Below, in pieces: positions 1 to 36,949 of a stretch of 42,057 nt of DNA (the stretch's first letter is position 1; every line of letters starts with the position of its first letter). Where the stretch lies: UHGV virus genome UHGV-0204900; one strand, written 5' to 3'. The notes under the pieces are model-generated. The model was not told where the DNA came from. It was given only the letters and a program-made list of their open reading frames with translations, and made no database searches. A program made the position numbers and the translations under genes. The stretch is from a virus.

Positions 1-249
1 ATGAAATTAGGTTTGTATTTAAAAAAACAAAAAATTAGCCAAGCTGAATTTGGGAAAACAGTTGGAGTTACTCAAGGATTTATTAGCCAAGTTATAGCTG
101 GTAGCTACCTACCTAAAGGTAGAAAAGCTATCGAGTGGTCAGCAAAAACTAATTGGTTAGTAACACCACATGATCTAAATCCAGTTGATTATCCAAACCC
201 TTGGGATGGCTTACCAAAGGAGCATTCAGTATTACAGGTATCAAATTAA
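1..249 (+). CDS. Cro/YdaS-like HTH transcriptional regulator (lytic repressor)
   Basis: 82 aa. An HTH-like segment QAEFGKTVGVTQGFISQV is present. The gene is divergent from the CI-like gene across the operator region. The AGGAG RBS lies at the window end, 7 nt before ATG at position 1 (requires circular or tandem joining). Followed by a YdaT-like gene, as in the Rac ydaS-ydaT pair. Confidence 0.75.
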   Translation: MKLGLYLKKQKISQAEFGKTVGVTQGFISQVIAGSYLPKGRKAIEWSAKTNWLVTPHDLNPVDYPNPWDGLPKEHSVLQVSN

Positions 250-297
250 AAAACTGATTATGCATAATCAATTTTTCTAGCGACAGGAGACGCAAAA

Positions 298-753
298 ATG
301 AATTTTGATATCAACATTATCAGAGCTGAAATTGAAGATTGGGCGGTAGAACAAGGGCAAGAACATGTTGCCATTGAGATTAGCCGAGCTTACTTACGAT
401 TAGTGGTTAATCAAGAACATGGTCGATTATATGCCATTGAGGATCAAACGGGTAAGGCCGACTGGAAAGCAATCAATAATAACCGGCAACAGATATTCCG
501 CTGGTTAAGAGGTGATTCCCGTGCATCTCAAAGAAAGATTGCTGAGTTAATGCCAGCGATAGAAATAGCACTACCGGCTTCGAGACTGGCTAGAGTTCGT
601 GGAGACACCAAAAATTATTTAGCAACAGTGGCCATTCAGCGTTTTGCTGATGCTATGACAGAAATTTTATTAGAAGGTCGTGACATGTCACACCAAATAA
701 ACAATGTAGTACGTGCGTTAAATGAGATATCACGCCCGACCAGCGTGCATTAA
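298..753 (+). CDS. YdaT-like (CII-analogous) regulatory protein
   Basis: 151 aa. Blocks such as IFRWLRGDSRASQRKIAELMPAIEIALPASRLARV resemble the Rac prophage YdaT family. Sits immediately downstream of the cro-like gene. Confidence 0.65.
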   Translation: MNFDINIIRAEIEDWAVEQGQEHVAIEISRAYLRLVVNQEHGRLYAIEDQTGKADWKAINNNRQQIFRWLRGDSRASQRKIAELMPAIEIALPASRLARVRGDTKNYLATVAIQRFADAMTEILLEGRDMSHQINNVVRALNEISRPTSVH

Positions 754-765
754 GAGGCAAGACCA

Positions 766-990
766 ATGATTAGATCAACTGAAAAAATTACATACCGTAA
801 TGGGTTTATGCTGAATGATAAACCTGCCCATATATCAGAAATTAGGGATATTTTTGAGGGTAGACGTGTTATTGCGTTGTTAGTTTGGGAGCAGTATGAG
901 AAGCAGAAACAAAAATTACTGTCAAAAAATTTAACCCCTGCACAGTATCAAAGTGCATGTCGATCAATAGCTAAATCGTTGGGGGTGTGA
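766..990 (+). CDS. hypothetical early protein
   Basis: 74 aa ORF. Preceded by the conserved box AAGAGGCAAGACCAATG (752-768). Tightly packed between the ydaT-like and replication genes. Confidence 0.6.
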   Translation: MIRSTEKITYRNGFMLNDKPAHISEIRDIFEGRRVIALLVWEQYEKQKQKLLSKNLTPAQYQSACRSIAKSLGV

Positions 991-991
991 A

Positions 992-1822
992 GTGAGAGCA
1001 TCCGATTTGTTATTAGACTTTGGTCGACCAGTAGCTTATTTCCCCGGACTAGTAAAACGTTTTGGGAGTGTAAATGCAGTAATTTTCTTTAGTCAAATAT
1101 TTTATTGGCAAGATAAGACTGACTCTGAATTAGGTGTTTATAAAACATCAGAAGAAATTGAATCTGAGACGGGTTTAAGCTACCGAGAACAACTGACGGC
1201 TAGAAAGCATTTAGTTAGCAGAGGTATTCTGGTTGAGACTAATAAACGCTTAGAGCATAAAATTTATTATCTAATTGACTGCGAAAAATTAGATTATGTC
1301 ATGTCACAACCTATTGAAAATGCACCAAATGCGCAAAACGCAACTGGGGAAAGTCACAATAGTGATTTCGCGGAACAACAAAACGAACGACCGCGACAAG
1401 ACAAAACTGACGGTGGCGATGAAACAAATACGCAGTTCGATCCTACAGAGATTACTACATATATTACTACAGATATTACTGATGGTACGTCAGGAGAACC
1501 TGACGACAACAAATCGTCATCAAAAATTAAATTGAATTATGAAAATATTATTAATTCATATCACGACATTTTGGCTGATATGCCAGCTATCAAAGTGATG
1601 ACTGATGAGCGTAAACGGAAGCTAAGAAATTTCTGGATAAAATTTAAATTCAATCAAGAGCGCTGGGAGAATTATTTATCGTATATTGCCAGTAATTGTC
1701 GATGGATGATGGAGGATCGAGATAATGGGCGAGGGGGGACGTGGCGACGTAAAAATTTAGATTATTTGATTACTGAGCGTTGCTATGTCGCCGTCAAGGA
1801 GGAACGTGCTAATGACAAATGA
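992..1822 (+). CDS. phage replication initiation protein (lambda O / P22 gp18-like role)
   Basis: 276 aa. GTG start after a GGGGG RBS. N-terminal winged-helix-like domain, then an acidic linker whose DNA carries 12-bp-periodic ATTACTAC repeats plus an AT-rich stretch (candidate ori). Immediately upstream of dnaB-like gene. Confidence 0.75.
   Translation: MRASDLLLDFGRPVAYFPGLVKRFGSVNAVIFFSQIFYWQDKTDSELGVYKTSEEIESETGLSYREQLTARKHLVSRGILVETNKRLEHKIYYLIDCEKLDYVMSQPIENAPNAQNATGESHNSDFAEQQNERPRQDKTDGGDETNTQFDPTEITTYITTDITDGTSGEPDDNKSSSKIKLNYENIINSYHDILADMPAIKVMTDERKRKLRNFWIKFKFNQERWENYLSYIASNCRWMMEDRDNGRGGTWRRKNLDYLITERCYVAVKEERANDK
1451..1570. repeat. candidate replication origin: three 12-bp-periodic ATTACTAC/ATTACTGA repeats (1451-1482) plus an AT-rich stretch (1513-1570) inside the initiator gene
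   Basis: ATTACTACatat ATTACTACagat ATTACTGAtggt. Downstream is a run of more than 55 bp at about 80% A+T. The arrangement parallels lambda ori inside O. Confidence 0.4.
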
Positions 1823-3230
1823 TTATTTCACACCACCATACAACCTTGAGGCAGAGCAGGCTGTACTAGGTGGCTTGATGATTAGCACTGATGAAGATAA
1901 GCGTCAGCACGTAATATCATTAGTTAAATCAGGATCATTTTATTCAAGACCTCACAGTCGAATTTTTACAGAGATAGTGAGGTTAATAAAATCTGATTAT
2001 CCAACAGATGTCATTACAGTTAGTGACTCTTTAACACGTAGTGGTGATTTAGAAAAAGTTGGAGGATTTGCCTACATAGCTGAACTTTGTAGATTACCTT
2101 CAGTTGCTAACATTGTGAACTATGCTCGGATTGTACGAGACAAGGCGATACAGCGTTATGCTATCAACAACCTGAATACCTGCGTTGAAATGCTAATGGC
2201 GAATGATGGTCTTGATATCAATAATAAACTATCAAATGTTCAGCAGGTTGTATCAAGCATTATCGAACATGCTAAAACAGGAAAGAGTAAAGGTTTAAGA
2301 CCTGCCCTAGATGTTGTTGAGGATTGGCTTGATGATGTTGATAGACGCTTCAGTGATCCTAAAAATGCAGTTGGTTTTACTTTGGGCATAGAGTCACTGG
2401 ATGAGTTAATGGCTCCTAAGCAGGCATTGAGAGGCTCATTAATTGTTGTTGGTGCAAGACCAAAAATGGGTAAAACCGCATTTTATAATCGTGTTGCAAC
2501 TCACTTTGCATTAAACCACCAGTTACCCACATTGCTTTTCAGCCTTGAGATGACAGACCGAGGGATCATTGAACGAATGATCTCTCAAGAAGGCGATGTA
2601 TCTGCAGATATTTTTTATACAGGTACACATGATGATATGGAAATGGCTAGGGCATTAGCCAGAGCAAAAGAGATTGCAGAATCGAATATGTATATCGATA
2701 GCACTCCTGGTATTGATCTTAACCATATCATCGCTGAATGTCGCAAGGTTAAACGAGCTAAAGGGCAAATAGGCTTAATAGCGATTGACTACCTGACTCT
2801 TATCAAAGCTGGGCAGGCTGAACGTCGTGATATTGCATATGGTGATATTACTACGGGGTTAAAAAATCTAGCAAAAGAAATGGATTGCGTTGTCCTGTTA
2901 TTAACCCAACTTAACCGTAAATTGGAAGATAGAGCAGATAAACGACCAACACCCGCTGATAGCCGTGATACAGGGCAAATTGAGCAAGATTGTGATATAT
3001 GGATTGGTTTATATCGTGATGCTGTTTACAACGATAATGCTGATAAATCGCTAATGGAAATTCTTCTCAGATTAAATCGTGATGGAAATACTGGTACCGC
3101 TTATGCTCAGCTGGTGAATTCTTATATTAAAAATCTTAGCAAAGGAGAGGTTGAGAAGCTGGTATTTAAAGAGGGAAATAATACTCGACGTTACTCTAAA
3201 AAGTTATCTGAAAGTACTCAAATGTTTTAG
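1812..3230 (+). CDS. dnaB: replicative DNA helicase DnaB family
   Basis: N-terminal DnaB motif PPYNLEAEQAVLGGLM, Walker A GARPKMGKTAF, and a RecA-like core. Start chosen at ATG 1812 (AAGGAGG RBS at 1794-1800); it overlaps the upstream stop. The ORF track starts it at 1785. Confidence 0.9.
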   Translation: MTNDYFTPPYNLEAEQAVLGGLMISTDEDKRQHVISLVKSGSFYSRPHSRIFTEIVRLIKSDYPTDVITVSDSLTRSGDLEKVGGFAYIAELCRLPSVANIVNYARIVRDKAIQRYAINNLNTCVEMLMANDGLDINNKLSNVQQVVSSIIEHAKTGKSKGLRPALDVVEDWLDDVDRRFSDPKNAVGFTLGIESLDELMAPKQALRGSLIVVGARPKMGKTAFYNRVATHFALNHQLPTLLFSLEMTDRGIIERMISQEGDVSADIFYTGTHDDMEMARALARAKEIAESNMYIDSTPGIDLNHIIAECRKVKRAKGQIGLIAIDYLTLIKAGQAERRDIAYGDITTGLKNLAKEMDCVVLLLTQLNRKLEDRADKRPTPADSRDTGQIEQDCDIWIGLYRDAVYNDNADKSLMEILLRLNRDGNTGTAYAQLVNSYIKNLSKGEVEKLVFKEGNNTRRYSKKLSESTQMF

Positions 3231-3375
3231 CATTTACCTTACTAATTTTTCATAAATATCAAGATACTTAAAAATTTATTAAATGTAGAAAATTTCAGAC
3301 ATTTTTTTTTATTTTTAGTATAGTAAGAAGTTTATATAAACCATAACTTCATTCACTCCTTAATGGTATAACAGC

Positions 3376-4626
3376 GTGATTTTTAAGAATATAAATAACC
3401 CTAAGAGGGGTAGTGAAAATGAAAGAAGAGCCAGTTGGTATAATTATTATGCTGGTTTTTCTCATACATTTGTCAGAAATTTAATAAATGATCTGCATTT
3501 ATCAAAAGAATCAGTCATTTTAGATCCTTGGAATGGTTCTGGTGCAACTACATATGCTGCTAGTATTGAAGGTTACCAATCCATTGGAAGTGATTTGAAT
3601 CCACCAATGTATGTTATTGCTAAGTCTAAAATGGCAGATAAAAACGATGTAATAAATGCACTGGCTAAAATAAAAAAAATGAGAGTCAATGTATTCTCAT
3701 GTATTTTTGATTCAGATGATTATTTAAATAATTGGTTTGTTCATCAAACTGCTAGTTATATTAGATATATAGATTTTTTCATCTGTAAAAAGATGAATGT
3801 TGATATAAATACAAAGTTACATCTGCTTAGTAAAGTTGATTGTTTATTATATGTGGCATTATTTAATACTATTAGATTATTAATAAAATCATTTGTTTCT
3901 TCAAATCCAACATGGATAAAAAAGGCAAAGGGAGCTAATAATAAGATAAGAGTTGATAATAGATTTATTAAACAATCCATCATTAACTTACTTAATGAAA
4001 AATTAGATGTTGATGATTTTCCTTTAATTAATAAGGATGCTTTTTTCTTATCTGAAGATGTGAAAAATTTATCTCTTAAAGATAAATCTATAGATATTGT
4101 TATTACATCCCCACCTTATTGTACTCGAATTGATTATGGCATTGCCACTTCACCGGAATCAGCGGTATTATATGGTAATAATCCTATTCAGATAGAAGAA
4201 ATGCGTCGTAGATTAATGGGAAGAACTACAATTGATAAAACATTCTATGATGGAATATCTTTTAGTAGTACTACGGATGAATTTTTATCGTCTATATATG
4301 AGCATAAATCAAGGGCTTCAAACACCTATTACTACAAGAATTTTTATCAATATTTTTTAGATCTTAATTTATCATTAATTGAAATTAATCGAGTTCTTAA
4401 GAATGATGGTTATTTTGTGTGTGTTGTGCAAGATTCATATTATAAAGAAATTCATTGTGACTTATCTCAGATTATTACTGAATTACTTGATAGCAACGGA
4501 TTCAAATTACTACAAAAGAAAGAGTTTGAATCTACAGTTAATATGGCTAACCTAAATAATAAATCAAAGATTTATCGTGATAAAATGGTAGCTACCGAAT
4601 ATGTGTTAATCTTTTCGCGAGGATAG
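3376..4626 (+). CDS. DNA methyltransferase (N6-adenine or N4-cytosine; motif I DPWNGSGAT, motif IV SPPY)
   Basis: 416 aa with a FxGxG-type AdoMet motif and an SPPY catalytic motif. No in-frame ATG before motif I, so start is GTG at 3376 with a weak RBS (start uncertain). Very AT-rich codon usage shared with the next two genes. A 4-nt gap separates it from the downstream gene. Confidence 0.8.
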   Translation: MIFKNINNPKRGSENERRASWYNYYAGFSHTFVRNLINDLHLSKESVILDPWNGSGATTYAASIEGYQSIGSDLNPPMYVIAKSKMADKNDVINALAKIKKMRVNVFSCIFDSDDYLNNWFVHQTASYIRYIDFFICKKMNVDINTKLHLLSKVDCLLYVALFNTIRLLIKSFVSSNPTWIKKAKGANNKIRVDNRFIKQSIINLLNEKLDVDDFPLINKDAFFLSEDVKNLSLKDKSIDIVITSPPYCTRIDYGIATSPESAVLYGNNPIQIEEMRRRLMGRTTIDKTFYDGISFSSTTDEFLSSIYEHKSRASNTYYYKNFYQYFLDLNLSLIEINRVLKNDGYFVCVVQDSYYKEIHCDLSQIITELLDSNGFKLLQKKEFESTVNMANLNNKSKIYRDKMVATEYVLIFSRG

Positions 4627-4630
4627 TGGA

Positions 4631-5752
4631 ATGAGTACAGAAGTAATATTAACTGAAATAGAATCCAAAATAGAAAAAGTTCATACACAGAGCTTAGATT
4701 TATCTTTTAATGAACTTCTTAGTATGTATGAAAATGAAGAATTAGATATTAGTCCTGATTATCAACGCTTATTTAGATGGTCCGAAGGAGCAAGATCAAG
4801 GTTTATTGAATCTTTAATATTAGAGATGCCTGTACCTCCTATTTATGTAGTGGAGACAGACTCAGGTGCTTATCAGCTTATTGATGGATTACAGCGCTTT
4901 TCATCTTATTTACATTTAAGAGGAGAACTTGATGCTAAACATATGGGAGTAAATAAAGGTGATTTCTTAATTTTATCAGATTGTGACATAATTGATTCTA
5001 TCAATGGTATGACATTTAATGATTTACCTATGGCTTTAAAAATAAAGTTAAAACGTTCTTTTGTAAGAGTTGAAATAGTAAGAAAAGGAAGTGATAAAAA
5101 ATTCAAATATCATATGTTTAAGAGATTAAATACAGGTGGTGAAGCATTAACAGAACAACAGATTAGAAATTGTACGATAAGAATGTTAGATCCTAAGTTT
5201 AATGACTTTATAATAATGTTATCAGAAACAGATGATTATCTGAACTGTATAGCAAATTTGTCTGATTCTCAAAGATATGGATCTTATGATCAAGAACTTG
5301 TATTAAGATATTTTTCTTTAAAGAATAATAAAGATGGATTTAAACATGATGTTGCAGATTTCATGACTGAATATATGGAATCTGTAGCAGGAGAGACAGT
5401 GGATTTTAATTATGACGAAAATGAACAAAATTTTCTAAAGGTATTTAAATTATTTAATAAAGCTCATGGTGATAAAATATTCGGAAGATTGAATAGCCAG
5501 AATAATAAATTGCAATCTAATTTTGGAATATACCATTTTGAATCACTTTGTATGGGGATTCAGTGTGTTCTAGATAGAATAGATATAAATAATGAAGAGC
5601 ATATCAAAAAATTTTCTCAAGCAGTAATTTCTTTAAAAGGTAATGCCGATTTTAAAACAGAAACAACTGGAGGAGGAAAAAATTCTACTGGATTGTTAAA
5701 TAAACGAATAAAAATTGCGGAGGGATTCTTTTCGGAGGCTTTCAGTGACTAG
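4631..5752 (+). CDS. DUF262 (ParB/Srx-like, GmrSD N-terminal-type) domain protein
   Basis: 373 aa with the hallmark PDYQR...W motif and IDGLQRFSS (DGQQR-type) motif. GAGGA RBS 9 nt upstream. AT-rich. Confidence 0.85.
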   Translation: MSTEVILTEIESKIEKVHTQSLDLSFNELLSMYENEELDISPDYQRLFRWSEGARSRFIESLILEMPVPPIYVVETDSGAYQLIDGLQRFSSYLHLRGELDAKHMGVNKGDFLILSDCDIIDSINGMTFNDLPMALKIKLKRSFVRVEIVRKGSDKKFKYHMFKRLNTGGEALTEQQIRNCTIRMLDPKFNDFIIMLSETDDYLNCIANLSDSQRYGSYDQELVLRYFSLKNNKDGFKHDVADFMTEYMESVAGETVDFNYDENEQNFLKVFKLFNKAHGDKIFGRLNSQNNKLQSNFGIYHFESLCMGIQCVLDRIDINNEEHIKKFSQAVISLKGNADFKTETTGGGKNSTGLLNKRIKIAEGFFSEAFSD

Positions 5753-6437
5753 TGAGGAATTTTTAACACAGATAGAATTAGATAGGGCATGGAGAGAAGA
5801 AGAAATTCGAACTATGAATAATATCTTAACAGAGCTGAAGGATGATAATGATAAAAATAAATTAAGGCGGGCAATTATTTGTTTGCTCTATGCTCACATT
5901 GAAGGTTTTGTTAAATTTTCATTTGGTTTGTACATAGAATCAATTAATGGATTAAAGTTAAAATGTCAAGATGTTAAACCTATATTAATAGCTGCTGTTT
6001 ATCATAAGGATTTTAGTAAACTCACAGACCCTGATGCTAAAAGTAAATTATTCACTAAAAAAGCACAAGAAGATAAATATATTAGAAGAATTTGTTTGCA
6101 AGAAGAGTTTTTTGAAAGAATTAATGATGTTTTTAATTCTGAAATAAAAATAGATGACGGGTACATTAATACAGAAAATAATGTGGGTAGGGAAGTTCTT
6201 GAGAAGCTACTATATCAAGTGGGTTTATCTCATAAGTCTTTAGATAATACAATTGGACCATTATCTAGGTTATTAAATAAAAGAAATGATATTGCTCATG
6301 GAACAGATAAAAGTTCCATTAAAGCCGAACATTATGATGAATATTTCAAGTGTGCTTTAGGTATCATGAAAGAGCTTACAAGTACATTATTTTTAGCATA
6401 TAGTAAAAAGGATTACTTGAAGCAATCTATAGTTTAA
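5745..6437 (+). CDS. HEPN-domain protein (Rx4H motif RNDIAHG; MAE_28990/MAE_18760-like)
   Basis: About 230 aa. Conserved R-x4-H in LLNKRNDIAHGT near the C-terminus. Probable GTG start at 5745 with a GGAGG RBS 6 nt upstream, overlapping the DUF262 stop by 8 nt (GTGACTAG). The ORF track gives a TTG start at 5715. Confidence 0.7.
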   Translation: MTSEEFLTQIELDRAWREEEIRTMNNILTELKDDNDKNKLRRAIICLLYAHIEGFVKFSFGLYIESINGLKLKCQDVKPILIAAVYHKDFSKLTDPDAKSKLFTKKAQEDKYIRRICLQEEFFERINDVFNSEIKIDDGYINTENNVGREVLEKLLYQVGLSHKSLDNTIGPLSRLLNKRNDIAHGTDKSSIKAEHYDEYFKCALGIMKELTSTLFLAYSKKDYLKQSIV

Positions 6438-6521
6438 AAAAAATAAAATAATTTATATAATAACCCCTATTGGCCTGAACACCCAATCCTAAATATTTGC
6501 TGTGTCAACTGAGAGTCAAGT

Positions 6522-7115
6522 ATGGCACAGCATAGCTTTATCAAAATGTCTAACGATACTCTTGTACCGGCTAACCCTGTTACGAGAGATTTTCTGCATT
6601 CAAAAATCAAATGTGGTGATGTGCTTTCAGCTAATTTTAAGAAAGCCCGTAACCCTCGATTCCATCGTAAATACTTCGCATTACTCAACTTAGGGTATGA
6701 ATATTGGGAACCCGTTGGCGGTACCATTTCACCTGAAGAAAAAGAGCTTGTGTGTGGTTACATCACATTCCTTTCATATTACACGGATAATACTGACGCG
6801 CTTTTATCCGCATCTGATATCTATCTTGAAGAAGTCGCACAAAATCGTGCGCAAAATATTTCAGCAACAAAATCTTTTGATGCTTTTCGCTATTGGGTTG
6901 TAGAGCAAGCCGGTTATTACGATACGTTTGAAATGCCTGACGGTAGTTTACGCCGTGTCGCTAAATCAATCAGCTTTGCAAATATGGACGACTTAGCATT
7001 TAGCGAACTCTACAAAGCCACACTCGATGTGCTTTGGAATTTTATTCTTCGTAAGCAATTCCCCACTCAAAAAGCTGTAGAAAATACAGTATCTCAATTA
7101 TTAAGTTTCACGTAG
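6522..7115 (+). CDS. nin-region hypothetical protein (possibly DUF1367/YbcN-like)
   Basis: 197 aa ORF with core-genome GC content. Occupies the position of nin-region genes between the replication module and Q. Confidence 0.55.
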   Translation: MAQHSFIKMSNDTLVPANPVTRDFLHSKIKCGDVLSANFKKARNPRFHRKYFALLNLGYEYWEPVGGTISPEEKELVCGYITFLSYYTDNTDALLSASDIYLEEVAQNRAQNISATKSFDAFRYWVVEQAGYYDTFEMPDGSLRRVAKSISFANMDDLAFSELYKATLDVLWNFILRKQFPTQKAVENTVSQLLSFT

Positions 7116-7126
7116 AGGCAAGACCA

Positions 7127-7438
7127 ATGATCAAATCAAAGACCAAAGATGAAAAAAAGTGGCTATCAGATGTAGCGGAACTGGGTTGTATTTGTTGTCG
7201 CAATATGGGGTTTGGAGCCAGTTTAGCGGAAATTCATCATGTTAGAACGGGGCAGGGAATGGCACAACGGGCTAGTCATACGGATGTTTTACCACTGTGT
7301 CCTCCACATCATAGAGCGTGTTACGAAACCGGCTTTCACGCTTCGCCTAAATCGTGGCAAGAAATTCATGGTACCGAAATTGAGTTGTTAGAACAGACTA
7401 AGCAAGAAGTAATGGAGTTACGAGCATGTCGAGTATAA
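7127..7438 (+). CDS. YbcO-like (DUF1364) putative nuclease
   Basis: 103 aa. Cys/His pattern GCICCRN...AEIHHVRTGQGM...LPLCPPHH matches the YbcO-family arrangement. Preceded by the conserved box TAGAGGCAAGACCAATG. Confidence 0.65.
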   Translation: MIKSKTKDEKKWLSDVAELGCICCRNMGFGASLAEIHHVRTGQGMAQRASHTDVLPLCPPHHRACYETGFHASPKSWQEIHGTEIELLEQTKQEVMELRACRV

Positions 7439-7959
7439 AAAGCATATCCGATGGATTAAAACTTGATGATGATCAGGTCGCTTGGATTCAGCCTTGGTTA
7501 TCAAAATTTGGAGCATGGATTTATTCAGGGAGGATAGAAAAAAGGCAAAGCAGTATTATCGCTGAATTTATGGCGACAGTAGAAAGGCGCGATTATCCCG
7601 AGCGAGAAATGTGTAATGATGATGACGGTATGTTGATCGCTAAAGTGGTCGATAAAATTTATCACATAGACAGAATAGCCTTTACGCTCTTATTACTGCG
7701 TTATGCCTTTGGTAGTTCAGATCGCGCTATTGCTCGTTATTACCACAATATAGCAAAACCGCGACAAATGATTAGGCGCAATAGAACGGTAGAATACAGA
7801 AAACCCTCTATGTCTACATGCAGAAGAGAAATTGAGGACATAATTAGTTCAGCTGAATATTTAATTTACCCATATTTAAAAGATGCATTTAAAAAACGTG
7901 AAAAAGAGTGGAAAAGTAAAAATAATAGCAAGAACGTATTGACTTCTTTGAGCCAATGA
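7426..7959 (+). CDS. late-gene antiterminator Q (QuuD / phage-82 family)
   Basis: FGAW and CNDDDGMLIA motifs resemble QuuD-type Q proteins. Followed by a promoter-like element and a strong intrinsic terminator (tR'-like), the classic Q-qut-tR' arrangement. Confidence 0.65.
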   Translation: MSSIKSISDGLKLDDDQVAWIQPWLSKFGAWIYSGRIEKRQSSIIAEFMATVERRDYPEREMCNDDDGMLIAKVVDKIYHIDRIAFTLLLLRYAFGSSDRAIARYYHNIAKPRQMIRRNRTVEYRKPSMSTCRREIEDIISSAEYLIYPYLKDAFKKREKEWKSKNNSKNVLTSLSQ

Positions 7960-7966
7960 TCCACTA

Positions 7967-7994
7967 TTTAAGTATAAGTTGCCGTTTTTATACT
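7967..7994 (+). promoter_or_regulatory. candidate late promoter pR' (-35 TTTAAG, 16-nt spacer, -10 TATACT)
   Basis: Sigma70-like hexamers lie directly downstream of the Q gene and upstream of the tR'-like terminator. Confidence 0.35.
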
Positions 7995-8005
7995 GTGACC
8001 AACTA

Positions 8006-8032
8006 ACCCAGCCTAAGCGCTGGGTTTTTTTG
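8006..8032 (+). terminator. intrinsic terminator (tR'-like) downstream of Q
   Basis: Stem ACCCAGC / GCTGGGT with a 6-nt loop, followed by a T7 run. Confidence 0.7.
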
Positions 8033-8121
8033 TATCTAAAACAGATAAGGCTTGCTGTTTCCTTTGTTCAGAGTTACATGTGTGTTCACGACCAATAACT
8101 GACCAAGGGTATTAAAATATC

Positions 8122-8319
8122 ATGTTAAAACATAGTGATATGACAGAAGAGGCAAGACTTGTTTTTGAAGTTGTTCCGCACACGATGGAAATTACAGCTG
8201 GCGAAGTTGCAGAATTTACTTATTTAACTGAGCCACGTTGTCAATTGATATTAACGCAGTTGGCGATGGCGGGACTAATCAAAGAAAACATCAAAGAAAA
8301 CACATTTCAAAATATCTAA
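8122..8319 (+). CDS. hypothetical small protein
   Basis: 65 aa ORF between tR' and the late-region MTase. Contains an internal copy of the GAGGCAAGAC box. Confidence 0.4.
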   Translation: MLKHSDMTEEARLVFEVVPHTMEITAGEVAEFTYLTEPRCQLILTQLAMAGLIKENIKENTFQNI

Positions 8320-8461
8320 TACTGTGAAAATGGGCGACAGTGAGGATGCTACTAACATCCCCGCTGTCATTTGCCCGTTCTGGTAGATCACGGACAAACT
8401 AAAGCCCACTGCTTATGTGCACAAAGCATAGTGAGCTTATCAAAAAAGGTTCTCCTGATCT

Positions 8462-9508
8462 ATGAAAAGTACTGTGAATTTAAACAGTGTGAATTTAGTC
8501 AATGATGACTCACTCAGCTATATAAAAACACTTCCCGATAATTATATTGATTTAATCGCAACTGACCCGCCTTACTTTCAGGTGAAGTCTTGTAGTTGGG
8601 ATAATCAGTGGGAAAACGTAACATCATATTTATCTTGGCTTGATGAAATGCTTGCAGAATTTTGGCGGGTATTAAAGCCTAACGGTAGTCTTTACATTTT
8701 TTGCGGTTCTAAACTAGCGTCGGATACAGAATTACTCGTCCGTGAAAGATTTAATATTCTAAGTCACATTGTATGGGCTAAACCATCAGGGCCTTGGCGC
8801 AGGGCATGTAAAGCTGATTTACGCAGTTTTTTCCCAAGCACTGAAAGAATTTTATTTGCTGAGCATTATCAAAGCCCATACAAGGGCAAAAGTAGTACCT
8901 ATCTTCAGCAATGCAAAGAGCTTAAAGAAAACATATTTAAGCCTTTAATTGAGTATTTTAAATTTGCACGTGAAACATTAGGAATAACTGCAAAAGAAAT
9001 AAAGCAGGCAACAGGTAAGCAGATGGCTTCACACTGGTTTAGTTATAGCCAATGGCAACTACCTAGTGAGTCTGATTACAAAAAACTGCAGGAGTTGTTT
9101 CATCGTGTAGCAAGTGAAAAATTCAGTAGTAATCCTTTAAATCGTGATCATGCTGATTTGATAGAGATTCAGGCTTCTCTTAGTCGAGAGTACCAGGAGC
9201 TTGCTGAACAATATCAATTATTACGTCGTCCTTTTTCTGTCACCGTTGATGTTCCTTATACCGATGTGTGGACGTATCCACCTGTGCAATATTACGCAGG
9301 TAAACACCCTTGTGAAAAGCCAGCAGAGATGATGGAACACATTATTCGTTCAAGTAGTCGCGAAGGTGATCTAGTTGCTGATTTCTTTATGGGGTCGGGT
9401 GCAACACTAAAATCTGCATTAAAACTAAGTCGTCGAGTTCTTGGAGTTGAACTTGAGAAAGAACGATTTGAACAAACAAGAGAGGAAATAAATAACATGA
9501 AGTCATAA
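8462..9508 (+). CDS. DNA methyltransferase, beta-class (motif IV DPPY N-terminal, motif I FMGSGAT C-terminal); likely orphan anti-restriction MTase
   Basis: IATDPPYF precedes ADFFMGSGATLKSA, the circularly permuted order typical of phage ParB-less N6A/N4C MTases. Core GC content. Confidence 0.85.
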   Translation: MKSTVNLNSVNLVNDDSLSYIKTLPDNYIDLIATDPPYFQVKSCSWDNQWENVTSYLSWLDEMLAEFWRVLKPNGSLYIFCGSKLASDTELLVRERFNILSHIVWAKPSGPWRRACKADLRSFFPSTERILFAEHYQSPYKGKSSTYLQQCKELKENIFKPLIEYFKFARETLGITAKEIKQATGKQMASHWFSYSQWQLPSESDYKKLQELFHRVASEKFSSNPLNRDHADLIEIQASLSREYQELAEQYQLLRRPFSVTVDVPYTDVWTYPPVQYYAGKHPCEKPAEMMEHIIRSSSREGDLVADFFMGSGATLKSALKLSRRVLGVELEKERFEQTREEINNMKS

Positions 9509-9767
9509 AGCGGATTGTCCGTATTTTACATGCTGATGTCATGATTCAGCTCCGAGTCTTTAAGAGAGCCAGCTTTGCATCTGGTTAGGGTTAATAAATA
9601 AAGGGGCACCGGTAACGAAGCATGACAGCCAATCGTGCACTGGTTAGATCCAACGGGGAGCAGAGACGAACTGGGGTTATAAACTCAAGGGCATGAGCGT
9701 GACCACTACGAGAGTGTGGTGAAATTTCATTACTCATAACACAAACAACTCGGACACTCCGTAGGGG

Positions 9768-30871: not shown

Positions 30872-32227
30872 ATGACTAAAATATTTAAAACCCCCTTTGC
30901 AACACAAGGGGATAAAACAGTTGTGCCTGTTGAAATACAATCTGATGGTTCTGTCTCTTATACACAAGGTTATGGTTATGATTATGAACGTGACCAAGTT
31001 ACAGACCCTGCCGCTAAAGATATTGAACGTGAAAAAATGAATGGGATATTTCACGATATCACAGAAGCGATTGGCGAAATTCAATCCTTTGGGTTTCCTA
31101 AATGGGATGAAGCCGGTAAGCCATATGCGATACGCGCTATTGTGTATCATAAAAATAAAGTCTGGCAGTCAAAGATTGAGAATAACAATATCGAACCGGT
31201 TACTGGTAATGCATGGGCAGAGTTAAAAGCGGATGCCACGGCAAGCGATGTGGGCGCATATTCAAAAGGGGAGTCCGATAAACGCTTTCAACCACTAGGC
31301 AATTACACACCATCCGGTTATAGCTACTCAAAGGCAGAAACCGACACCAAATATCAACCAAAGGGTAATTATGCCCCCGCGGGGAACTATGCCAATAAAG
31401 GGGATAGTTACACTAAAACGGAAAGTGACGGACGTTATCAAGCGAAAGGAAGTTACCAACCATCAGGCGATTACGCGACAAATTTAGCACTCAATAGTGG
31501 GCTTAATAATAAGTTTGATAAAGGTAATGTAGTTCAAGGTACGGGAACGTCAACGGTTCATGTGATGAGCCAGAAAGCTTCTACAGATGCTTTTCAACCT
31601 AAGGGAAATTATCAACCTAAAGGTAATTATGCATTAGCCGGTGCTTCATATACGAAGACGGAATCGGATGGTCGATACCAAGCTAAAGGGAGTTATGCAA
31701 CGGCTGGAAGTAGCTATACAAAAGCAGAAAGTGACGGACGTTATCAAGGTAAGGGAAATTACCAACCAGCGGGCAATTATGCGCTAGTAGGAGCATCGTA
31801 TACTAAGGCAGAGTCTGACGGTAAATATCAGGCTAAAGGCAGTTATCAAGCTTCTGGTTACAGTTATTCAAAATCAGAATCAGATAGTAAGTATCAACCT
31901 AAAGGAAATTATGCACCAGCTGGAAATTATGGTGCTAAAAATACTGCAAATAAGGCTCAATCAGGTTGGTGGAAATGTGGAGATACAGGAATTATATATC
32001 AGTGGGCTACAGTAAAAGGTTGTACAACTAGAACGGACTTTAGGTCTTTTCCAATTCCTTTTCCTAATAAGTGTTTATCTGTCTCTGGAAGTTATGTCAA
32101 TGAGGATGACTATGGTCAGGGAGTTTCGATAAAAATAAAAAGTAATAAAGATATGTTAATAATTGCACATGGAGCTAGTGGGGAATGGAAAAATTCTGAA
32201 GTACAATATATAGCTATAGGATATTAA
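30872..32227 (+). CDS. tail fibre protein with tandem phage-fibre repeats
   Basis: 451 aa. About 7 repeats of SYTK(A/T)ESDGRYQAKGSY...GNY (Phage_fiber_2-like) between about aa 128 and 346, followed by a distinct C-terminal domain. Confidence 0.8.
   Translation: MTKIFKTPFATQGDKTVVPVEIQSDGSVSYTQGYGYDYERDQVTDPAAKDIEREKMNGIFHDITEAIGEIQSFGFPKWDEAGKPYAIRAIVYHKNKVWQSKIENNNIEPVTGNAWAELKADATASDVGAYSKGESDKRFQPLGNYTPSGYSYSKAETDTKYQPKGNYAPAGNYANKGDSYTKTESDGRYQAKGSYQPSGDYATNLALNSGLNNKFDKGNVVQGTGTSTVHVMSQKASTDAFQPKGNYQPKGNYALAGASYTKTESDGRYQAKGSYATAGSSYTKAESDGRYQGKGNYQPAGNYALVGASYTKAESDGKYQAKGSYQASGYSYSKSESDSKYQPKGNYAPAGNYGAKNTANKAQSGWWKCGDTGIIYQWATVKGCTTRTDFRSFPIPFPNKCLSVSGSYVNEDDYGQGVSIKIKSNKDMLIIAHGASGEWKNSEVQYIAIGY
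31250..31920 (+). repeat. tandem approx 72-bp coding repeats (fibre repeat units)
   Basis: Protein-level repeats YSKGESDKRFQ / YSKAETDTKYQ / YTKTESDGRYQ / YTKAESDGRYQ / YTKAESDGKYQ / YSKSESDSKYQ. Confidence 0.7.
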
Positions 32228-32232
32228 ATGAT

Positions 32233-32254
32233 AAAGGGGATTAACTTCCCCTTT
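32233..32254. terminator. bidirectional intrinsic terminator between convergent fibre and acyltransferase genes
   Basis: AAGGGGA TTAACTT TCCCCTT with flanking A/T runs. Confidence 0.55.
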
Positions 32255-32257
32255 GAT

Positions 32258-33286
32258 TTATACTTTTTTTAACAAATTCACTACTATTTTTTTCATAGGT
32301 AATTCATAGTATTTATAAATAAATATACTACCTAAAATACTTATTGTTAAAATAGAAAGTAACATATAAAAATCACTGCCAAAAAATATTCTATTCTCGA
32401 TAGAAAATCTAATGATTAATTGGTGAATCATATACAGTGAAAAACTCGATTCGCCCAATAGAACTAGTGTTTTATGGGATAAAACTTTTGTAATAAATCC
32501 ATTGGAGTATGATAGGGATATTATTAATACAGACATAGGGATTATGTAATAAATGTCAAAGCGATACGCTATATTAACCATGTAAGAATAATATATAAAT
32601 ATTAAAAATAAAGAAATAGACAATATTTGAAATATTATAACTTGATATGTAGGAATATTAAGATTTAACTTATTGAACCTTAGTCTAAAAATTAAAACAC
32701 CGATAATAAAGTCAGGGAGTCTCAATATTGGTGATATGTATATGTATGCATGAATGGCTTTCTCGCTAATATTTATTTCTGATAATAGTATTTTTAAAAT
32801 AAGTATGAATATAGTTACTTTTATAAGTGTATTTGAACTTCTAGTGATAAGAAAAGGAAAAAGGAAGTAAAAGAATAATTCAACAGAAATACTCCATGAC
32901 GGAGCGTTGAGTGAAAAATAATAACTTGCTTTAGGTATTAAAGCCTGTAAAAGAAAAATGTTTGATAATATTTCTTTTACAGATTCATTTTGATATAAAA
33001 ATAATAATGTAAATAATAAAGTTAAAAGATGAAGTGGGTATATTCTAGCAATCCGTGCTGTATAAAAATCGAATTTATTTTTCTCACCATCTAATAATTT
33101 TTCTTGATAAGAATAAGACAATACAAAACCAGATAAAATAAAAAATAAAGTAACACCAATAAACCCTTCTTTTACATATATAAAATCAAACGGTGTATTT
33201 TTAAAGAAGTCTAAATGTGAAAATAAAACAAATATAGCCGCAAAAAATCTTATAGAAGTTAATGGTAGAATATGGCTTTTATTCAC
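32258..33286 (-). CDS. membrane acyltransferase, Acyltransferase_3 / OafA-like (candidate O-antigen acetylase, lysogenic conversion)
   Basis: 342 aa multi-TM protein. The N-terminus ILPLTSIRFFAAIFVLFSHL matches the acyltransferase-3 family. GTG start. Very AT-rich. Minus strand, between the fibre gene and att. Confidence 0.8.
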   Translation of the reverse strand: MNKSHILPLTSIRFFAAIFVLFSHLDFFKNTPFDFIYVKEGFIGVTLFFILSGFVLSYSYQEKLLDGEKNKFDFYTARIARIYPLHLLTLLFTLLFLYQNESVKEILSNIFLLQALIPKASYYFSLNAPSWSISVELFFYFLFPFLITRSSNTLIKVTIFILILKILLSEINISEKAIHAYIYISPILRLPDFIIGVLIFRLRFNKLNLNIPTYQVIIFQILSISLFLIFIYYSYMVNIAYRFDIYYIIPMSVLIISLSYSNGFITKVLSHKTLVLLGESSFSLYMIHQLIIRFSIENRIFFGSDFYMLLSILTISILGSIFIYKYYELPMKKIVVNLLKKV

Positions 33287-33301
33287 GACAAACCTTATGA
33301 A

Positions 33302-33638
33302 TAGATTGGTTGTTATTATTGCCTCATTCTATCATATTTGCGCATAATCACTAATCCTCTATGGCATTCATACAATTTATTTTTAGTCTAATTTTTGGTC
33401 ATTTTATTGTGTTCAAAAAATTCTTCCAACTTCTCAAACAAATCCCTCGCCACAGCCTCCGTCATATACGTCCTCATTGGCTCCCGTCTAACATCTTTCA
33501 TTTTAAACGTGCTCTCATCAAACATTGGATCAGAAAAGATAATATCCATAAACAGATAGCCATAGGGTTATCTACAGATAAACGGGCCTCTTCTAACTGA
33601 GCAATATATTCAGCATTATTGGTTTCAAGTTTAATCAT
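33302..33638 (-). pseudogene. frameshift-disrupted small ORF (MIKLETNNAEYIAQLEEARLS... / ...MRTYMTEAVARDLFEKLEEFF)
   Basis: Two consecutive minus-strand reading frames (46 aa and 53 aa) would join into an approx 84-aa product with a single indel near 33555. The annotated plus-strand ORF 33361-33600 is probably its antisense artefact. Confidence 0.3.
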
Positions 33639-33823
33639 GGCACCACCTATTTAACTGTGTTTTTATACAGTAATTTATATAGGGTAATGGGTAGGATAGC
33701 AAGTTTAAAATTGCAAATTTATGCATGTGGTAATACAGAGATAAGTGAGGAATTTTTAGTGATAATCCATTGTAGTTTTACCCCAGTTTTACCCCTATTT
33801 TACCCCTCGTAAATTTCAGGCAT

Positions 33824-33853
33824 AAAAAAACCAACCGTAAGAGGTTGGTTTTT
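33824..33853. terminator. bidirectional intrinsic terminator downstream of the tRNA-Pro 3' fragment
   Basis: A7 run, then AACCAACC GTAAGA GGTTGGTT, then T5. Lies just 3' (on the minus strand) of the CCA end of the partial tRNA. Confidence 0.65.
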
Positions 33854-33864
33854 CTAAAGAATTT

Positions 33865-33911
33865 TGGTCGGCATGATAGGATTTGAACCTACGACCCCCG
33901 ACACCCCATGA
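33865..33911 (-). other. attP core: 3' 47 nt of a tRNA-Pro gene (T-arm GGTTCAAATCC, acceptor stem, CCA)
   Basis: Reverse complement CATGGGGTGTCGGGGGTCGTAGGTTCAAATCCTATCATGCCGACCA closely resembles the 3' portion of enterobacterial tRNA-Pro (proK-type), but no 5' half is present. Typical of phage attachment sites that reconstitute a target tRNA. Confidence 0.7.
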
Positions 33912-34425
33912 AACCGACTTTAATTTGTCTAACACTTTGATTATAAATATAAATAATACATTTGCATGTAATTACACACAGTGCTAGATATACAAAATAT
34001 GCATTATAAGAATCAATGGGTTAAGGTGAGTTTTACCACTATATTTATACCTGTTAGCTCAGGTTTGAGCTAACAGGTTTCGTAGGTAGAATATAGCTAA
34101 ACTTAACGATCTAAGTGAAAAGCGGACATTGTATTCGCAAGATAATATGAAATCATTGAAGATTAATGATTTTTCCCTATTTAAATTAGGTAGTACTAAT
34201 TGTTGCTAATATTATTAGAAATTTCACCTAATCAGACTGATTAACAAAAAATATACGATATCAAATAATTAAATTAATTTTTTGGTATATTATATTAATT
34301 CGTTAAAACACAGTAATCCGCTTTTTCACAGAAATTAAACTACCATTTTACTGTGTTTGTATATTGCTTGATTTTTAAGCATGATAATAATAGCTGTGTA
34401 ATGAAACTCGTCTAAGGGAGCAGTT

Positions 34426-34710
34426 ATGAAAAATCCAAGTATTGATAAGCTTCAGAAACAGATAAAAGAAGTGGAACATGCAACAGTAGCGCTGGATGGT
34501 AGTTATAATGTCAATTATGATGCGAATGATCTAGCTAGTATTGAAAATGCAATTCAGGAGGCATGCAGTTTAGTTGATGAACGAGCTTCACAGTACCAAA
34601 CAAATCCTCTCGTCATACCCATAATAGAGCGGGTGAAAGAAAATCTGCGAGAACAGATACTCAATGATGCTGAGCAACAAAGAAATGGGGTGAAGAAAGA
34701 TGGCTATTGA
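34426..34710 (+). CDS. hypothetical small protein (first gene of AT-rich cassette)
   Basis: 94 aa with an AGGGAG RBS. Overlaps the downstream gene by 11 nt. Confidence 0.55.
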   Translation: MKNPSIDKLQKQIKEVEHATVALDGSYNVNYDANDLASIENAIQEACSLVDERASQYQTNPLVIPIIERVKENLREQILNDAEQQRNGVKKDGY

Positions 34711-35599: not shown

Positions 35600-35618
35600 A
35601 ACTATGCTAAGTTAAATT

Positions 35619-35641
35619 AGGTCGCAAAGCGACCTTTTTTG
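35619..35641 (+). terminator. intrinsic terminator closing the TIR-like cassette
   Basis: AGGTCGC AAA GCGACCT followed by TTTTTT. Confidence 0.7.
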
Positions 35642-35772
35642 CTGATAGTTTGGCTACCCTTAATTTATTAATTCCTAGCATCTGAAATATCCACTTTGGG
35701 CACAGAATAACCTGTCAATTAAAATTGACCCTGTATCATACCCATATTAGGCCAAATCTGAGCTAATAAAAC

Positions 35773-36948: not shown

Positions 36949-36949
36949 A

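Follow-up and report, generated by a model that had tools for sequence, protein, structure and literature searches.

A methyltransferase–DUF262–HEPN operon carried as cargo between dnaB and ninB of a lambdoid Proteus terrae prophage

Introduction

Three closely packed genes of unusually low G+C content lie between the dnaB-like and ninB genes of the virus genome UHGV-0204900. The question raised by this locus is whether these genes form a defence or abortive-infection system, as the initial annotation proposed, and how such a system might work. The stretch of DNA that was analysed, 42,057 nt in length, is referred to here as the window. The features of interest, with their positions and the profile matches that identify them, are as follows.

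1785..3230, + strand: DnaB-like replicative helicase, left flank (phrog_19, 5.1e-111); outside the system, hotspot boundary
3231..3375, + strand: AT-rich intergenic leader, dnaB stop to methyltransferase start (G+C 0.21)
3296-3324: weak sigma-70-like site CAGACA-17-TATAGT (score 9/12); candidate promoter only
3376 (GTG)-4626, + strand: DNA methyltransferase, 416 aa (Pfam N6_N4_Mtase, 2.4e-14)
4631 (ATG)-5752, + strand: DUF262 protein (ParB/Srx-fold NTPase), NsnA-like, 373 aa (Pfam GmrSD_N, 9e-23)
5745 (GTG)-6437, + strand: HEPN protein, MAE_28990/RiboL-PSP family, 230 aa (HEPN_RiboL-PSP, 1.7e-33; HEPN_MAE_28990, 1.2e-31)
6522..7115, + strand: NinB/DUF1367, right flank (phrog_319, 1.8e-63; PF07105, 4.3e-83); outside the system, hotspot boundary

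Composition and organization of the cassette

It is apparent that positions 3231-6470 constitute a compact three-gene operon (methylase, DUF262, HEPN), present as cargo in a lambdoid Proteus terrae prophage. The G+C content of this segment is 0.279, versus 0.392 across the whole window; 3.2-kb segments elsewhere have values of 0.405 ± 0.037, and 3231-6470 is the lowest of all. A drop from 42% to 28% had been estimated by eye. The lower figure was correct, but that for the flanks was slightly too high (approximately 39–40%; 0.39 for dnaB and 0.396 for ninB).

The tight coupling described initially was confirmed from the ORF coordinates. The genes are on the same strand, with a gap of 4 nt (tgga) between the first two and an overlap of 8 nt (GTGACTAG, 5745-5752) between the last two. 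Shine–Dalgarno-like sequences precede the DUF262 start (GAGGA, 4619-4623) and the HEPN start (GGAGG, 5734-5738). The TTG at 5715 given by the ORF lister as the HEPN start was rejected, since the starts of 30 homologues align with the GTG at 5745.

The cassette points the same way as the delayed-early genes and lies within the early-right transcription unit; NinB/DUF1367, a Ref-like nuclease and the Q antiterminator follow it. A second methylase is encoded in the same phage at 8462-9508. Promoter-like sites were not enriched in the cassette region (21, versus 23.5 expected from shuffled sequence), and no terminator was found there. The initial suggestion of expression from the prophage was overstated. 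A site resembling the candidate promoter in the leader, CGGACA-17-TATGAT, is similarly placed, 53 nt upstream, in a Providencia prophage (L016); BLASTN homology to Providencia prophages begins only at 3347.

The three proteins

The family assignments made initially for all three proteins held when profiles were searched, and the motifs on which they had been based (DPWNGSGAT and SPPY in the methyltransferase, PDYQR and DGLQR in the DUF262 protein, and the Rx4H motif RNDIAHG in the MAE_28990-like HEPN protein) are present. In addition to N6_N4_Mtase, the methyltransferase matches PADLOC MTase_II (1.5e-24), phrog_18146 (3.8e-27) and, partially and in its N-terminal half, Pfam MethyltransfD12 (7.7e-6). 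Motif I (DPWNGSGATT, aa 50-59) and motif IV (SPPYCTRIDY, aa 245-254) are invariant across 17 loci that carry the three genes. Their order, with a variable middle region between them, suggests an alpha-class-like enzyme in which aa 81-240 would be the putative target-recognition domain. The GTG start is supported by the invariant residues N8-P9-K10-R11. The protein belongs to the 90%-identity cluster of WP_109420228.1 from P. terrae, to which it is 99% identical.

The DUF262 protein is 100% identical to WP_109420229.1 and matches phrog_2598 (1.7e-73). Its GmrSD_N match is confined to aa 28-182, beyond which a helical C-terminal half follows, and no DUF1524/HNH nuclease domain was found with Pfam. 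Two PADLOC models match over the full length, namely NsnA (1.8e-54, 183 bits, residues 13-370 aligned to positions 40-382 of the 385 in the profile) and PD-T4-2_A (PDLC04027; 5.9e-41, 139 bits, profile positions 41-362 of 363). As the NsnA model matched over the whole length, the architecture is read as ParB-DUF262 plus ParBDB, the C-terminal region being a predicted helical ParBDB-like domain. The QRxxxW (PDYQRLFRW), DGxQR (DGLQR) and FxxxN (FKRLN) motifs are invariant even among homologues of 26–39% identity. An AF2 model (pLDDT 82.6) gave SspE (6jiv) and ParB CTPases as best Foldseek matches, all weak. The PADLOC 'Type II restriction enzyme' model PDLC03418 (372 positions) also matches, at 1.1e-10, on the ParB-like domain only. 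The DUF262 protein is the proposed DNA sensor.

In the HEPN protein, the invariant elements are R180-x4-H185, YAHIEGF (aa 49-55) and NTENNVG (aa 142-148), and the protein is the putative RNase effector. Neither it nor five other phage-borne HEPN partners matched any PADLOC model, even at E ≤ 10. PADLOC v2 is thus blind to this component, and such loci are currently missed by it.

Conservation and mobility of the trio

The three genes proved to be a conserved syntenic unit, as the initial annotation had suggested might be checked, with the same order across approximately 30 close-homologue loci. The trio was present at 13 of 13 loci found on genome contigs with the HEPN profile, at six of seven viral loci, and at all three loci reached from the methyltransferase side, including one in a Bacteroidota genome; it was also found in Providencia, Enterobacter, Gilliamella and metagenome loci. 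Its hosts and elements comprise Gammaproteobacteria, Bacteroidota, one cyanobacterium, prophages and integrase islands, and the clade, which extends over Proteobacteria, Bacteroidota and Cyanobacteria, comprises 166 clusters at 50% identity (E ≤ 1e-30). The contexts range from prophages of differing replication types to integrase/AlpA islands and defence-island-like neighbourhoods with Mrr or AAA_15 ATPases, together with chromosomal sites that have no phage early operons (e.g. in Gilliamella, Hymenobacter and Shewanella).

Spacing is likewise conserved. Gaps between the methyltransferase and DUF262 genes range from -11 to +12 nt, and the DUF262 and HEPN genes overlap by 1–8 nt, mostly 4, the sole exception being a locus (L013) in which DUF262 is frameshifted and the methylase intact. 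At trio loci, the pairwise identities of any one of the three proteins correlate with those of the others (r = 0.90-0.94), and all cassettes compared are AT-rich relative to their own flanks. The trio is a self-contained, horizontally mobile unit. In distant relatives, the linked methylase is of another family (Eco57I-type in Terrisporobacter phage TVCOM_ph1, D12-type in PD-lambda-5), which argues that the linkage is functional and not merely inherited.

DUF262–HEPN pairs lacking a methyltransferase also exist, at L024/L025 and L032, in Klebsiella, Moraxella and Vibrio phages, and in the sibling prophages L091 and L101. Since such pairs occur and PD-T4-2 works, the sensor and effector do not inherently need a mark of self. 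The initial suggestion that the methylase serves in self-protection was overstated in view of these pairs (PD-T4-2, L024, L032, L091, L101), and self-protection is treated below as a proposal.

Cargo of the dnaB–ninB junction

It had been proposed that the replication/nin junction is a hotspot for cargo genes. Eighty sibling prophages were surveyed with NinB/DUF1367 as the anchor, and defence genes were indeed found in this slot, namely AbiTii, the AbiP2 reverse transcriptase (AbiP2/DRT) and RosmerTA; PIN_8 was found there as well. Dam-type and C5 orphan methylases are frequently carried in it, and the pair in L091 and L101, different from the one described here, occupies the same slot. The dnaB–ninB junction of Proteus/Providencia prophages is thereby documented as a rich defence hotspot.

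Comparison with known systems

The architecture itself is not novel. It was predicted by Anantharaman, Makarova, Burroughs, Koonin & Aravind 2013 (Biol Direct 8:15, Table 1; PMC3710099), who listed an operon with 'ParB nuclease and DNA methylase' in which an MAE_28990-family HEPN protein with an Rx4-6H motif adjoins a ParB-superfamily (DUF262) protein. That entry is one line of comparative genomics, with no experiment, gene order or host/element context, and its description of the ParB protein as a nuclease finds no support in later DUF262 work. The trio is therefore a further example of a known operon type, whose tested relatives, PD-T4-2 and PD-lambda-5, have two genes. No paper or experiment on the methyltransferase–DUF262–HEPN trio was found in the literature.

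PD-T4-2 (Vassallo et al. 2022; E. coli ECOR65), a DUF262 gene followed by a RiboL-PSP/MAE_28990 HEPN gene, protects E. coli from T4, both as a clone and in the native strain (PMC9519451), and citations of it, as of 2026, treat it only as a HEPN-containing defence. The gene order is the same here, and the DUF262 protein fits PD-T4-2_A over its full length, although it scores higher on NsnA (183 versus 139 bits). The HEPN proteins were compared by family description and profiles, the window protein matching no PADLOC model: by HHpred, PD-T4-2B is HEPN_RiboL-PSP (97.8%) and MAE_28990 (96.9%), and the window HEPN, directly downstream of DUF262, belongs to both Pfam families. PD-T4-2B is, however, shorter (approximately 165 versus 230 aa), and the functional PD-T4-2 fragment was cloned without a methylase, whereas the trio clade always has a dedicated one upstream.

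PD-lambda-5 (Vassallo et al. 2022; from a prophage of E. coli ECOR7) also combines ParB-fold, HEPN and DNA methylase activities in a prophage, confers broad protection, and was read by its authors as a 'compacted prophage RM+Abi' (PMC9519451). In that system, though, the ParB and HEPN parts are fused in one protein, while here they are separate. The ParB part is of the ParBc type (DUF262 at only 36% HHpred probability), and its resemblance to HEPN is marginal. Its D12/Dam-class methylase lies downstream, whereas that of the window is upstream, with its partial D12 match. None of the window proteins matched PADLOC PD-Lambda-5_A.

Menshen (NsnABC; Millman et al. 2022; Li et al. 2025 NAR) shares the NsnA-type DUF262 plus ParBDB sensor, and about 28% of its loci have linked R-M, BREX or methylase genes. 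Here, however, the effector is a stand-alone HEPN protein coupled directly to the sensor. Identity with Menshen was rejected, as no match to the NsnB ABC-ATPase or the NsnC inPIN nuclease was found with PADLOC and only HEPN and then ninB lie downstream. The resemblance to Dazbog (DzbAB) suggested initially was not borne out, there being no Dazbog model among the PADLOC matches obtained at E ≤ 0.1 for any of the proteins.

GmrSD, BrxU and SspE, in which DUF262 is an NTP-dependent modification sensor (PMC10952713, PMC12065111), share the DUF262 NTPase with its QRxxxW, DGxQR and FxxxN motifs and, by weak Foldseek similarity, an SspE-like helical middle domain. They differ in having a DUF1524 HNH nuclease, where the trio has a separate RNase-type HEPN effector. 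A GmrSD-type type IV enzyme was rejected, DUF262 being neither fused nor paired with DUF1524. The Ssp systems resemble the trio in having a linked modification enzyme, but theirs belongs to phosphorothioation and this one is a methylase. As for a classical type II R-M system, no DNase domain was recognized in the trio, in which the methylase motifs are intact and the REase_II match on the ParB-like domain is weak.

Possible modes of action

A role in defence or abortive infection, as originally proposed, is the best reading, given the conservation of the trio, the cargo of the hotspot and the tested relatives; the signature and catalytic motifs of all three proteins are, moreover, intact and invariant across homologues. 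We give roughly even odds to the trio being a methylase plus ParB/DUF262 plus MAE_28990-HEPN anti-phage operon that acts by the following steps. The methyltransferase would mark resident DNA, chromosome and prophage alike, at a short motif. The NsnA-like DUF262 protein, having no nuclease domain of its own, would scan DNA and recognize incoming molecules lacking the cognate mark. An NTP-driven conformational change would then release or activate the HEPN partner, probably made in a fixed ratio with the sensor via the overlapping stop and start. A HEPN dimer would cut tRNA, rRNA or mRNA, so that translation stops and abortive infection or growth arrest follows. The output would resemble restriction–modification, with RNA cleaved rather than DNA.

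Two observations count against a methylation-reading mechanism. One is the methyltransferase-less pairs. The other is that column identity is 0.83-0.96 in the DUF262 N-domain versus 0.20-0.40 in the putative target-recognition region of the methyltransferase. A sensor domain so much more conserved than that region is unexpected if both read the same changing motif.

A classical R-M system with a suicide back-up, the logic proposed in PMC3710099, is unlikely. The DUF262/ParB protein would be a DNase acting on unmethylated DNA, against which the methylase protects, and the HEPN protein, held inactive by DUF262, would fire when restriction is blocked or overwhelmed, like PrrC with EcoPrrI. The strict methyltransferase linkage, which suits a DNA-targeting toxin, and the PDLC03418 match speak for this reading. 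That REase_II match, however, spans the ParB-like domain only. In GmrSD, BrxU and SspE, DUF262 is the NTPase/sensor and DUF1524, absent here, does the cutting. In addition, methyltransferase-less pairs are tolerated, PD-T4-2 being so in E. coli K-12.

Slightly less likely still is a type IV-like sensor, in which DUF262 plus HEPN would detect hypermodified or phage-specific DNA, like GmrSD, and the methylase would be an unrelated anti-restriction orphan serving the mobile element. PD-T4-2, which needs no methylase, was obtained by selection with T-even phages (glucosyl-hmC DNA) and protects against them; orphan Dam-type and C5 methylases are frequent in the hotspot, and one further methylase is already encoded in the phage, at 8462-9508. 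A passenger, however, would be expected to show occasional loss or swap. This methylase subfamily was encountered solely alongside the pair (all three look-ups that started from the methyltransferase gave the trio), and, among the best 120 homologues, many named proteins are from organisms also in the DUF262 and HEPN match lists. It always lies upstream, at -11 to +12 nt, and its divergence tracks that of the pair (r ~0.9) in different phyla and types of element.

A function that is not primarily anti-phage is improbable, whether an addiction module stabilizing the prophage or island by R-M-like post-segregational killing or a lytic early-right function (shutting off the host, or excluding superinfecting phages while replication is under way). 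In favour of such a function, the cassette, lying between dnaB and ninB, shares the orientation of the delayed-early genes and has neither a terminator nor a convincing promoter of its own. All copies of the trio are on mobile or AT-rich foreign DNA, and L013, with its frameshifted DUF262 and intact methylase, has decayed in the order usual for addictive R-M systems. Against it, the trio also occurs in the chromosomes without phage early operons noted above, and a defensive role is proven for homologous pairs; the two functions, addiction and defence, are of course not mutually exclusive.

Returning to the mark, sense and RNA-cleavage reading, it is conceivable, though we advance it tentatively, that the trio represents a distinct R-M class ('restriction by RNase') in which a ParB/Srx-fold NTPase reads methylation, HEPN cuts RNA and the methylase is an indispensable antidote. 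The methyltransferase-less PD-T4-2-type pairs, including the sibling pair in the same slot, would then be its modification-dependent, type IV-like counterpart.

DUF262 plus HEPN is a proven anti-phage module, and the trio clade is a very well conserved version of it with a dedicated methylase. The presence of that methylase here, versus a methyltransferase-less pair in the same slot of close prophages, is a natural contrast by which the idea that a ParB-fold sensor takes methylation as the mark of self, and couples its reading to the cleavage of RNA, can be put to a direct test.

The three-gene cassette

An AT-rich stretch following dnaB in the window contains three tightly coupled genes, as proposed in the initial annotation, and the domains that had been assigned by eye were recovered by Pfam for all three proteins.

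Genes of the cassette and its flanks
Stop at 3230: DnaB-like helicase, left of the cassette (G+C content 0.39)
3376-4626, same strand as the other two genes: methyltransferase (ORF call and Pfam N6_N4_Mtase, 2.4e-14)
4631-5752, same strand as the other two: DUF262 protein (Pfam GmrSD_N/DUF262, 9e-23)
5745-6437, same strand as the other two: HEPN protein (HEPN_RiboL-PSP, 1.7e-33; HEPN_MAE_28990, 1.2e-31)
Begins at 6522: NinB, right of the cassette (G+C content 0.396)

The methyltransferase and DUF262 genes are separated by 4 nt, the DUF262 and HEPN genes overlap by 8 nt (GTGACTAG), and good Shine-Dalgarno sequences lie upstream of the DUF262 and HEPN starts. The HEPN start was placed at the GTG at 5745, where 30 homologues begin, in preference to a longer ORF from the TTG at 5715; the GTG start of the methylase is backed by residues 8-11, which are invariant in homologues. 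The G+C content of 3231-6470 is 0.279, the lowest among all 3.2-kb stretches of the window (0.392 overall). The surrounding gene order is that of a lambdoid early-right region: CII, O-like protein, DnaB, cassette, NinB, Ref-like nuclease and Q.

The DUF262 protein is identical to WP_109420229.1 (Proteus terrae), and in 90%-identity clusters the methyltransferase groups with WP_109420228.1 and the HEPN protein with WP_157954994.1. No DNA-level relatives were detected in the phage collection by megablast of positions 1-9600 or by blastn of the cassette, and an NCBIfam search of the three proteins gave no meaningful matches.

Promoter-like sites occur in the cassette region at chance level, and no terminator was found between the cassette and the early-right operon. 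Only one weak sigma-70-like site, at 3296-3324, has a similarly placed counterpart in the nearest relative. A search of 24 loci for a private promoter conserved ahead of the methylase gave no general signal, a similarly placed weak site being common to the two closest relatives only.

Conservation of the trio as a mobile unit

A profile of HEPN homologues was searched against contigs representing one genome per species, and 13 loci were obtained. It is apparent that the order methylase, DUF262, HEPN on a single strand is preserved in every one of them, in hosts comprising diverse Gammaproteobacteria, a cyanobacterium (Leptolyngbya) and a delta-proteobacterial MAG. The trio was also present in six of seven IMG/VR loci, in three loci reached through the methylase (Rahnella, Shewanella and the Bacteroidota member Hymenobacter), and in Providencia rettgeri prophages, an Enterobacter integrase/AlpA island, Gilliamella and one metagenome contig. 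The claim that the genes form a unit is thus upheld by genomic, viral and methylase-side loci alike.

Across the trio loci, the first junction ranges from -11 to +12 nt and the second is an overlap of 1-8 nt, mostly 4, the sole exception being a frameshifted locus. The pairwise identities of the three proteins co-vary (r = 0.90-0.94), and the cassettes are all markedly AT-rich relative to their own flanks. These features fit a unit that has been transferred whole. The HEPN family itself is moderately large, with 166, 1038 and 2005 clusters (50% identity) at E<=1e-30, E<=1e-10 and E<=1e-3, respectively.

Several individual loci merit description. In the frameshifted one (L013, a Wohlfahrtiimonas MAG, 3104-4218), the DUF262 gene is split and the methylase and HEPN genes are intact, reflecting either decay of the sensor or an error of MAG assembly. 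In Enterobacter hormaechei (L019) and Rahnella sikkimica (L033), the trio lies in small integrase islands that share one chromosomal insertion site, beside yicC and rph; in L019 and a further locus, L020, two genes of 353 and 433 aa, unannotated and without a Pfam match, lie on its flanks. Peduovirus P24B2, an E. coli P2-like phage, carries DUF262 and HEPN_MAE_28990 genes at one extremity of the linear record of its genome (L015, 140-3041), next to a C5 methylase gene that is truncated and lies on the opposite strand. In the Firmicutes temperate phage TVCOM_ph1 of Terrisporobacter (L014, 3974-7403), the order is DUF262, HEPN, Eco57I-type methylase, close to the integrase. The same module therefore occurs with different methylase families and in different gene orders.

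The dnaB-ninB interval

A set of 80 related prophages (L039-L118) was collected through NinB, which served as the anchor. The trio was found in one of these, L055 (the same locus as L026), which is the same phage as the window. Both dnaB and ninB could be located in 70 of the loci. There the two genes are 475 bp to 4.4 kb apart, and the cargo ORFs between them fall into 61 clusters, combined in more than 35 ways. The cargo includes AbiTii, an AbiP2-type defence (AbiP2/DRT) reverse transcriptase, RosmerTA (RmrA), a PIN_8 protein, a ParA-like ATPase and methylases of the Dam and C5+Dam types. No Pfam or PADLOC match was obtained for several of the proteins encoded there, 269-339 aa long (e.g. 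L043:6130-6939 and L106:5773-6792), which are candidates for unknown defence genes.

Placement of the trio in this slot is repeated. It occupies this position ahead of ninB in Providencia prophages whose replication module is of the lambda-P type, and in another phage lineage it is found between NinB and a DnaB of 28% identity. Two IMG/VR sibling prophages (L091, 4220-5909; L101, 5252-6950) carry in the slot a different pair, DUF262 and HEPN genes without a methylase. Their DUF262 and HEPN proteins are 33-34% and 23-26% identical to those of the window, respectively (hhalign probability 98.2% for HEPN), in flanks whose DnaB and NinB proteins are 84-95% and 84-98% identical. Cargo diversity and repeated placement together make a well-supported case for the moron hotspot suggested in the initial annotation, and this location lends independent weight to a role in defence.

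A second AT-rich island (G+C content 0.306 in a 3.2-kb sliding window) was observed at 32000-36950, possibly another region of defence or lysogenic-conversion cargo. Its features are as follows.

32258-33286, minus strand: ORF resembling, by eye, a multi-pass membrane acyltransferase such as those that modify O-antigen
34700-35599, plus strand: ORF whose C-terminal part matches Cap12, a TIR-like effector associated with CD-NTases (PDB 9lmq_A, 1.5e-5; 7un8_A, 1.8e-4)
35773-36948, minus strand: integrase-like gene adjoining the island

Features of the methylase and DUF262 proteins

About 190 residues separate motif I (DPWNGxGTTT) of the methylase from motif IV (SPPYCTRIDY) C-terminal to it, and both are invariant among homologues. 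The least conserved stretch, aa 81-240, falls between them and, judged from this pattern, is likely to be the target-recognition domain. SPPY is commoner in N4-cytosine enzymes. Database names conflict, the family being named 'DNA adenine methylase' by NCBI and homologues 'site-specific DNA-methyltransferase (cytosine-N4-specific)' by UniRef; the product may be either m6A or m4C. A second DNA methyltransferase is encoded downstream of Q (8462-9508, plus strand; N6_N4_Mtase, 2e-43; phrog_67). It is present in most sibling prophages, with or without the trio; the phage thus possesses a methylase of its own apart from the cassette.

The QRxxxW, DGxQR and FxxxN motifs of the DUF262 protein are invariant even in relatives of 26-39% identity, and its C-terminal domain is helical. 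The best Foldseek matches of the AF2 model (pLDDT 82.6) were SspE and ParB CTPases, all weak and at domain level; a PDB sequence search with the three proteins returned no relatives, one match to a designed protein being spurious. A glycine-rich loop, T-T-G-G-G-K-N-S (residues 345-352; window 5663-5686), lies where the last helix of the C-terminal domain begins. Residues G347, G348, G349, K350, N351 and S352 do not vary among 27 close homologues; with three distant homologues added, conservation of the loop is still at least 90%. It looks like a phosphate-binding loop; no mention of it was found in the literature consulted.

Comparison with known systems

The DUF262 protein aligns end to end with the PADLOC models for NsnA (1.8e-54) and PD-T4-2_A (5.9e-41), and matches the ParB-DUF262 plus ParBDB architecture of Menshen NsnA (PMC12065111). 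The cassette nevertheless falls outside Menshen, as it lacks NsnB and NsnC, and is not a GmrSD-type enzyme, because DUF1524 is missing; no other nuclease domain was found in the DUF262 protein. The likeness to Dazbog suggested earlier did not hold, since none of the three proteins matched a Dazbog profile. DARNA, which cites PD-T4-2, was set aside as PD-T7-3, an unrelated HEPN system, as were papers on BREX type 4/phosphorothioate and Hma, in which DUF262 and HEPN are mentioned only in unrelated contexts. No PADLOC model was matched by the HEPN protein of the window or by those of five further pairs carried by phages, so PADLOC v2 would not call the trio locus.

A general connection between COG1479/DUF262 and both HEPN and DNA-modification systems had been pointed out in 2013 (PMC3632139). 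The tested relatives of the cassette are PD-T4-2 and PD-lambda-5, a likeness judged through profiles and the authors' HHpred tables rather than direct protein alignment. PD-T4-2 (DUF262 and HEPN) protected E. coli from T4 as a clone and also in the strain of origin, and PD-lambda-5 (a ParB/HEPN fusion with a methylase) gave broad protection, read by its authors as a compact RM+Abi system (PMC9519451). No paper testing the three-gene form was found in the literature. The novelty asserted in the initial annotation was thus overstated: the cassette belongs to a known kind of operon, computationally predicted in 2013.

Proposed mechanism

The cassette comprises three enzymes, intact by their motifs, in a co-inherited, mobile operon at a defence hotspot. 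Together with the tested relatives, these properties make the defence role first put forward from the sequence probable. Expression from the prophage and self-protection by the methylase, as put forward in the initial annotation, are assumptions. In GmrSD, BrxU and SspE, DUF262 is an NTP-dependent sensor of DNA modification state that switches on an attached nuclease (PMC10952713; PMC12065111), and HEPN domains are described in the literature as metal-independent RNases acting as toxins or abortive-infection effectors. We infer a scheme, which we consider evenly poised between right and wrong, in which the methylase would mark self DNA, the DUF262/ParBDB protein would detect DNA without the methyl mark and activate its HEPN partner, and the latter would cleave RNA and abort the infection.

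Caution is advised mainly because pairs without a methylase exist: the functional PD-T4-2, the comparison loci L024/L025 and L032, the pair in L091/L101, and those of Klebsiella, Moraxella and Vibrio phages. Such pairs are common and functional, and the sensor-effector core therefore needs no self-mark in general. Caution is also suggested by sequence conservation, which is much higher in the N-domain of the DUF262 protein than in the putative target-recognition region of the methylase.

The two-pronged model of Anantharaman et al. (2013), predicted for operons of ParB, DNA methylase and MAE_28990-HEPN, would make the ParB protein a DNase and HEPN its back-up; we regard it as unlikely here. 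It is rather improbable that a type IV-like sensor is accompanied by a mere passenger methylase, as no member of this methylase subfamily turned up apart from the pair, its gene is always immediately upstream, and distant modules have recruited other families (Eco57I-type in TVCOM_ph1, D12-type in PD-lambda-5). An addiction or lytic-cycle function is very improbable.

The value of the cassette lies in the very clean conservation of the trio and in its contrast with the methylase-less pairs of the same prophage slot, where L091/L101 and the window provide a natural trio-versus-pair comparison. It lies also in the question that the cassette poses, namely whether a sensor of the ParB fold links methylation status to the action of an RNase.
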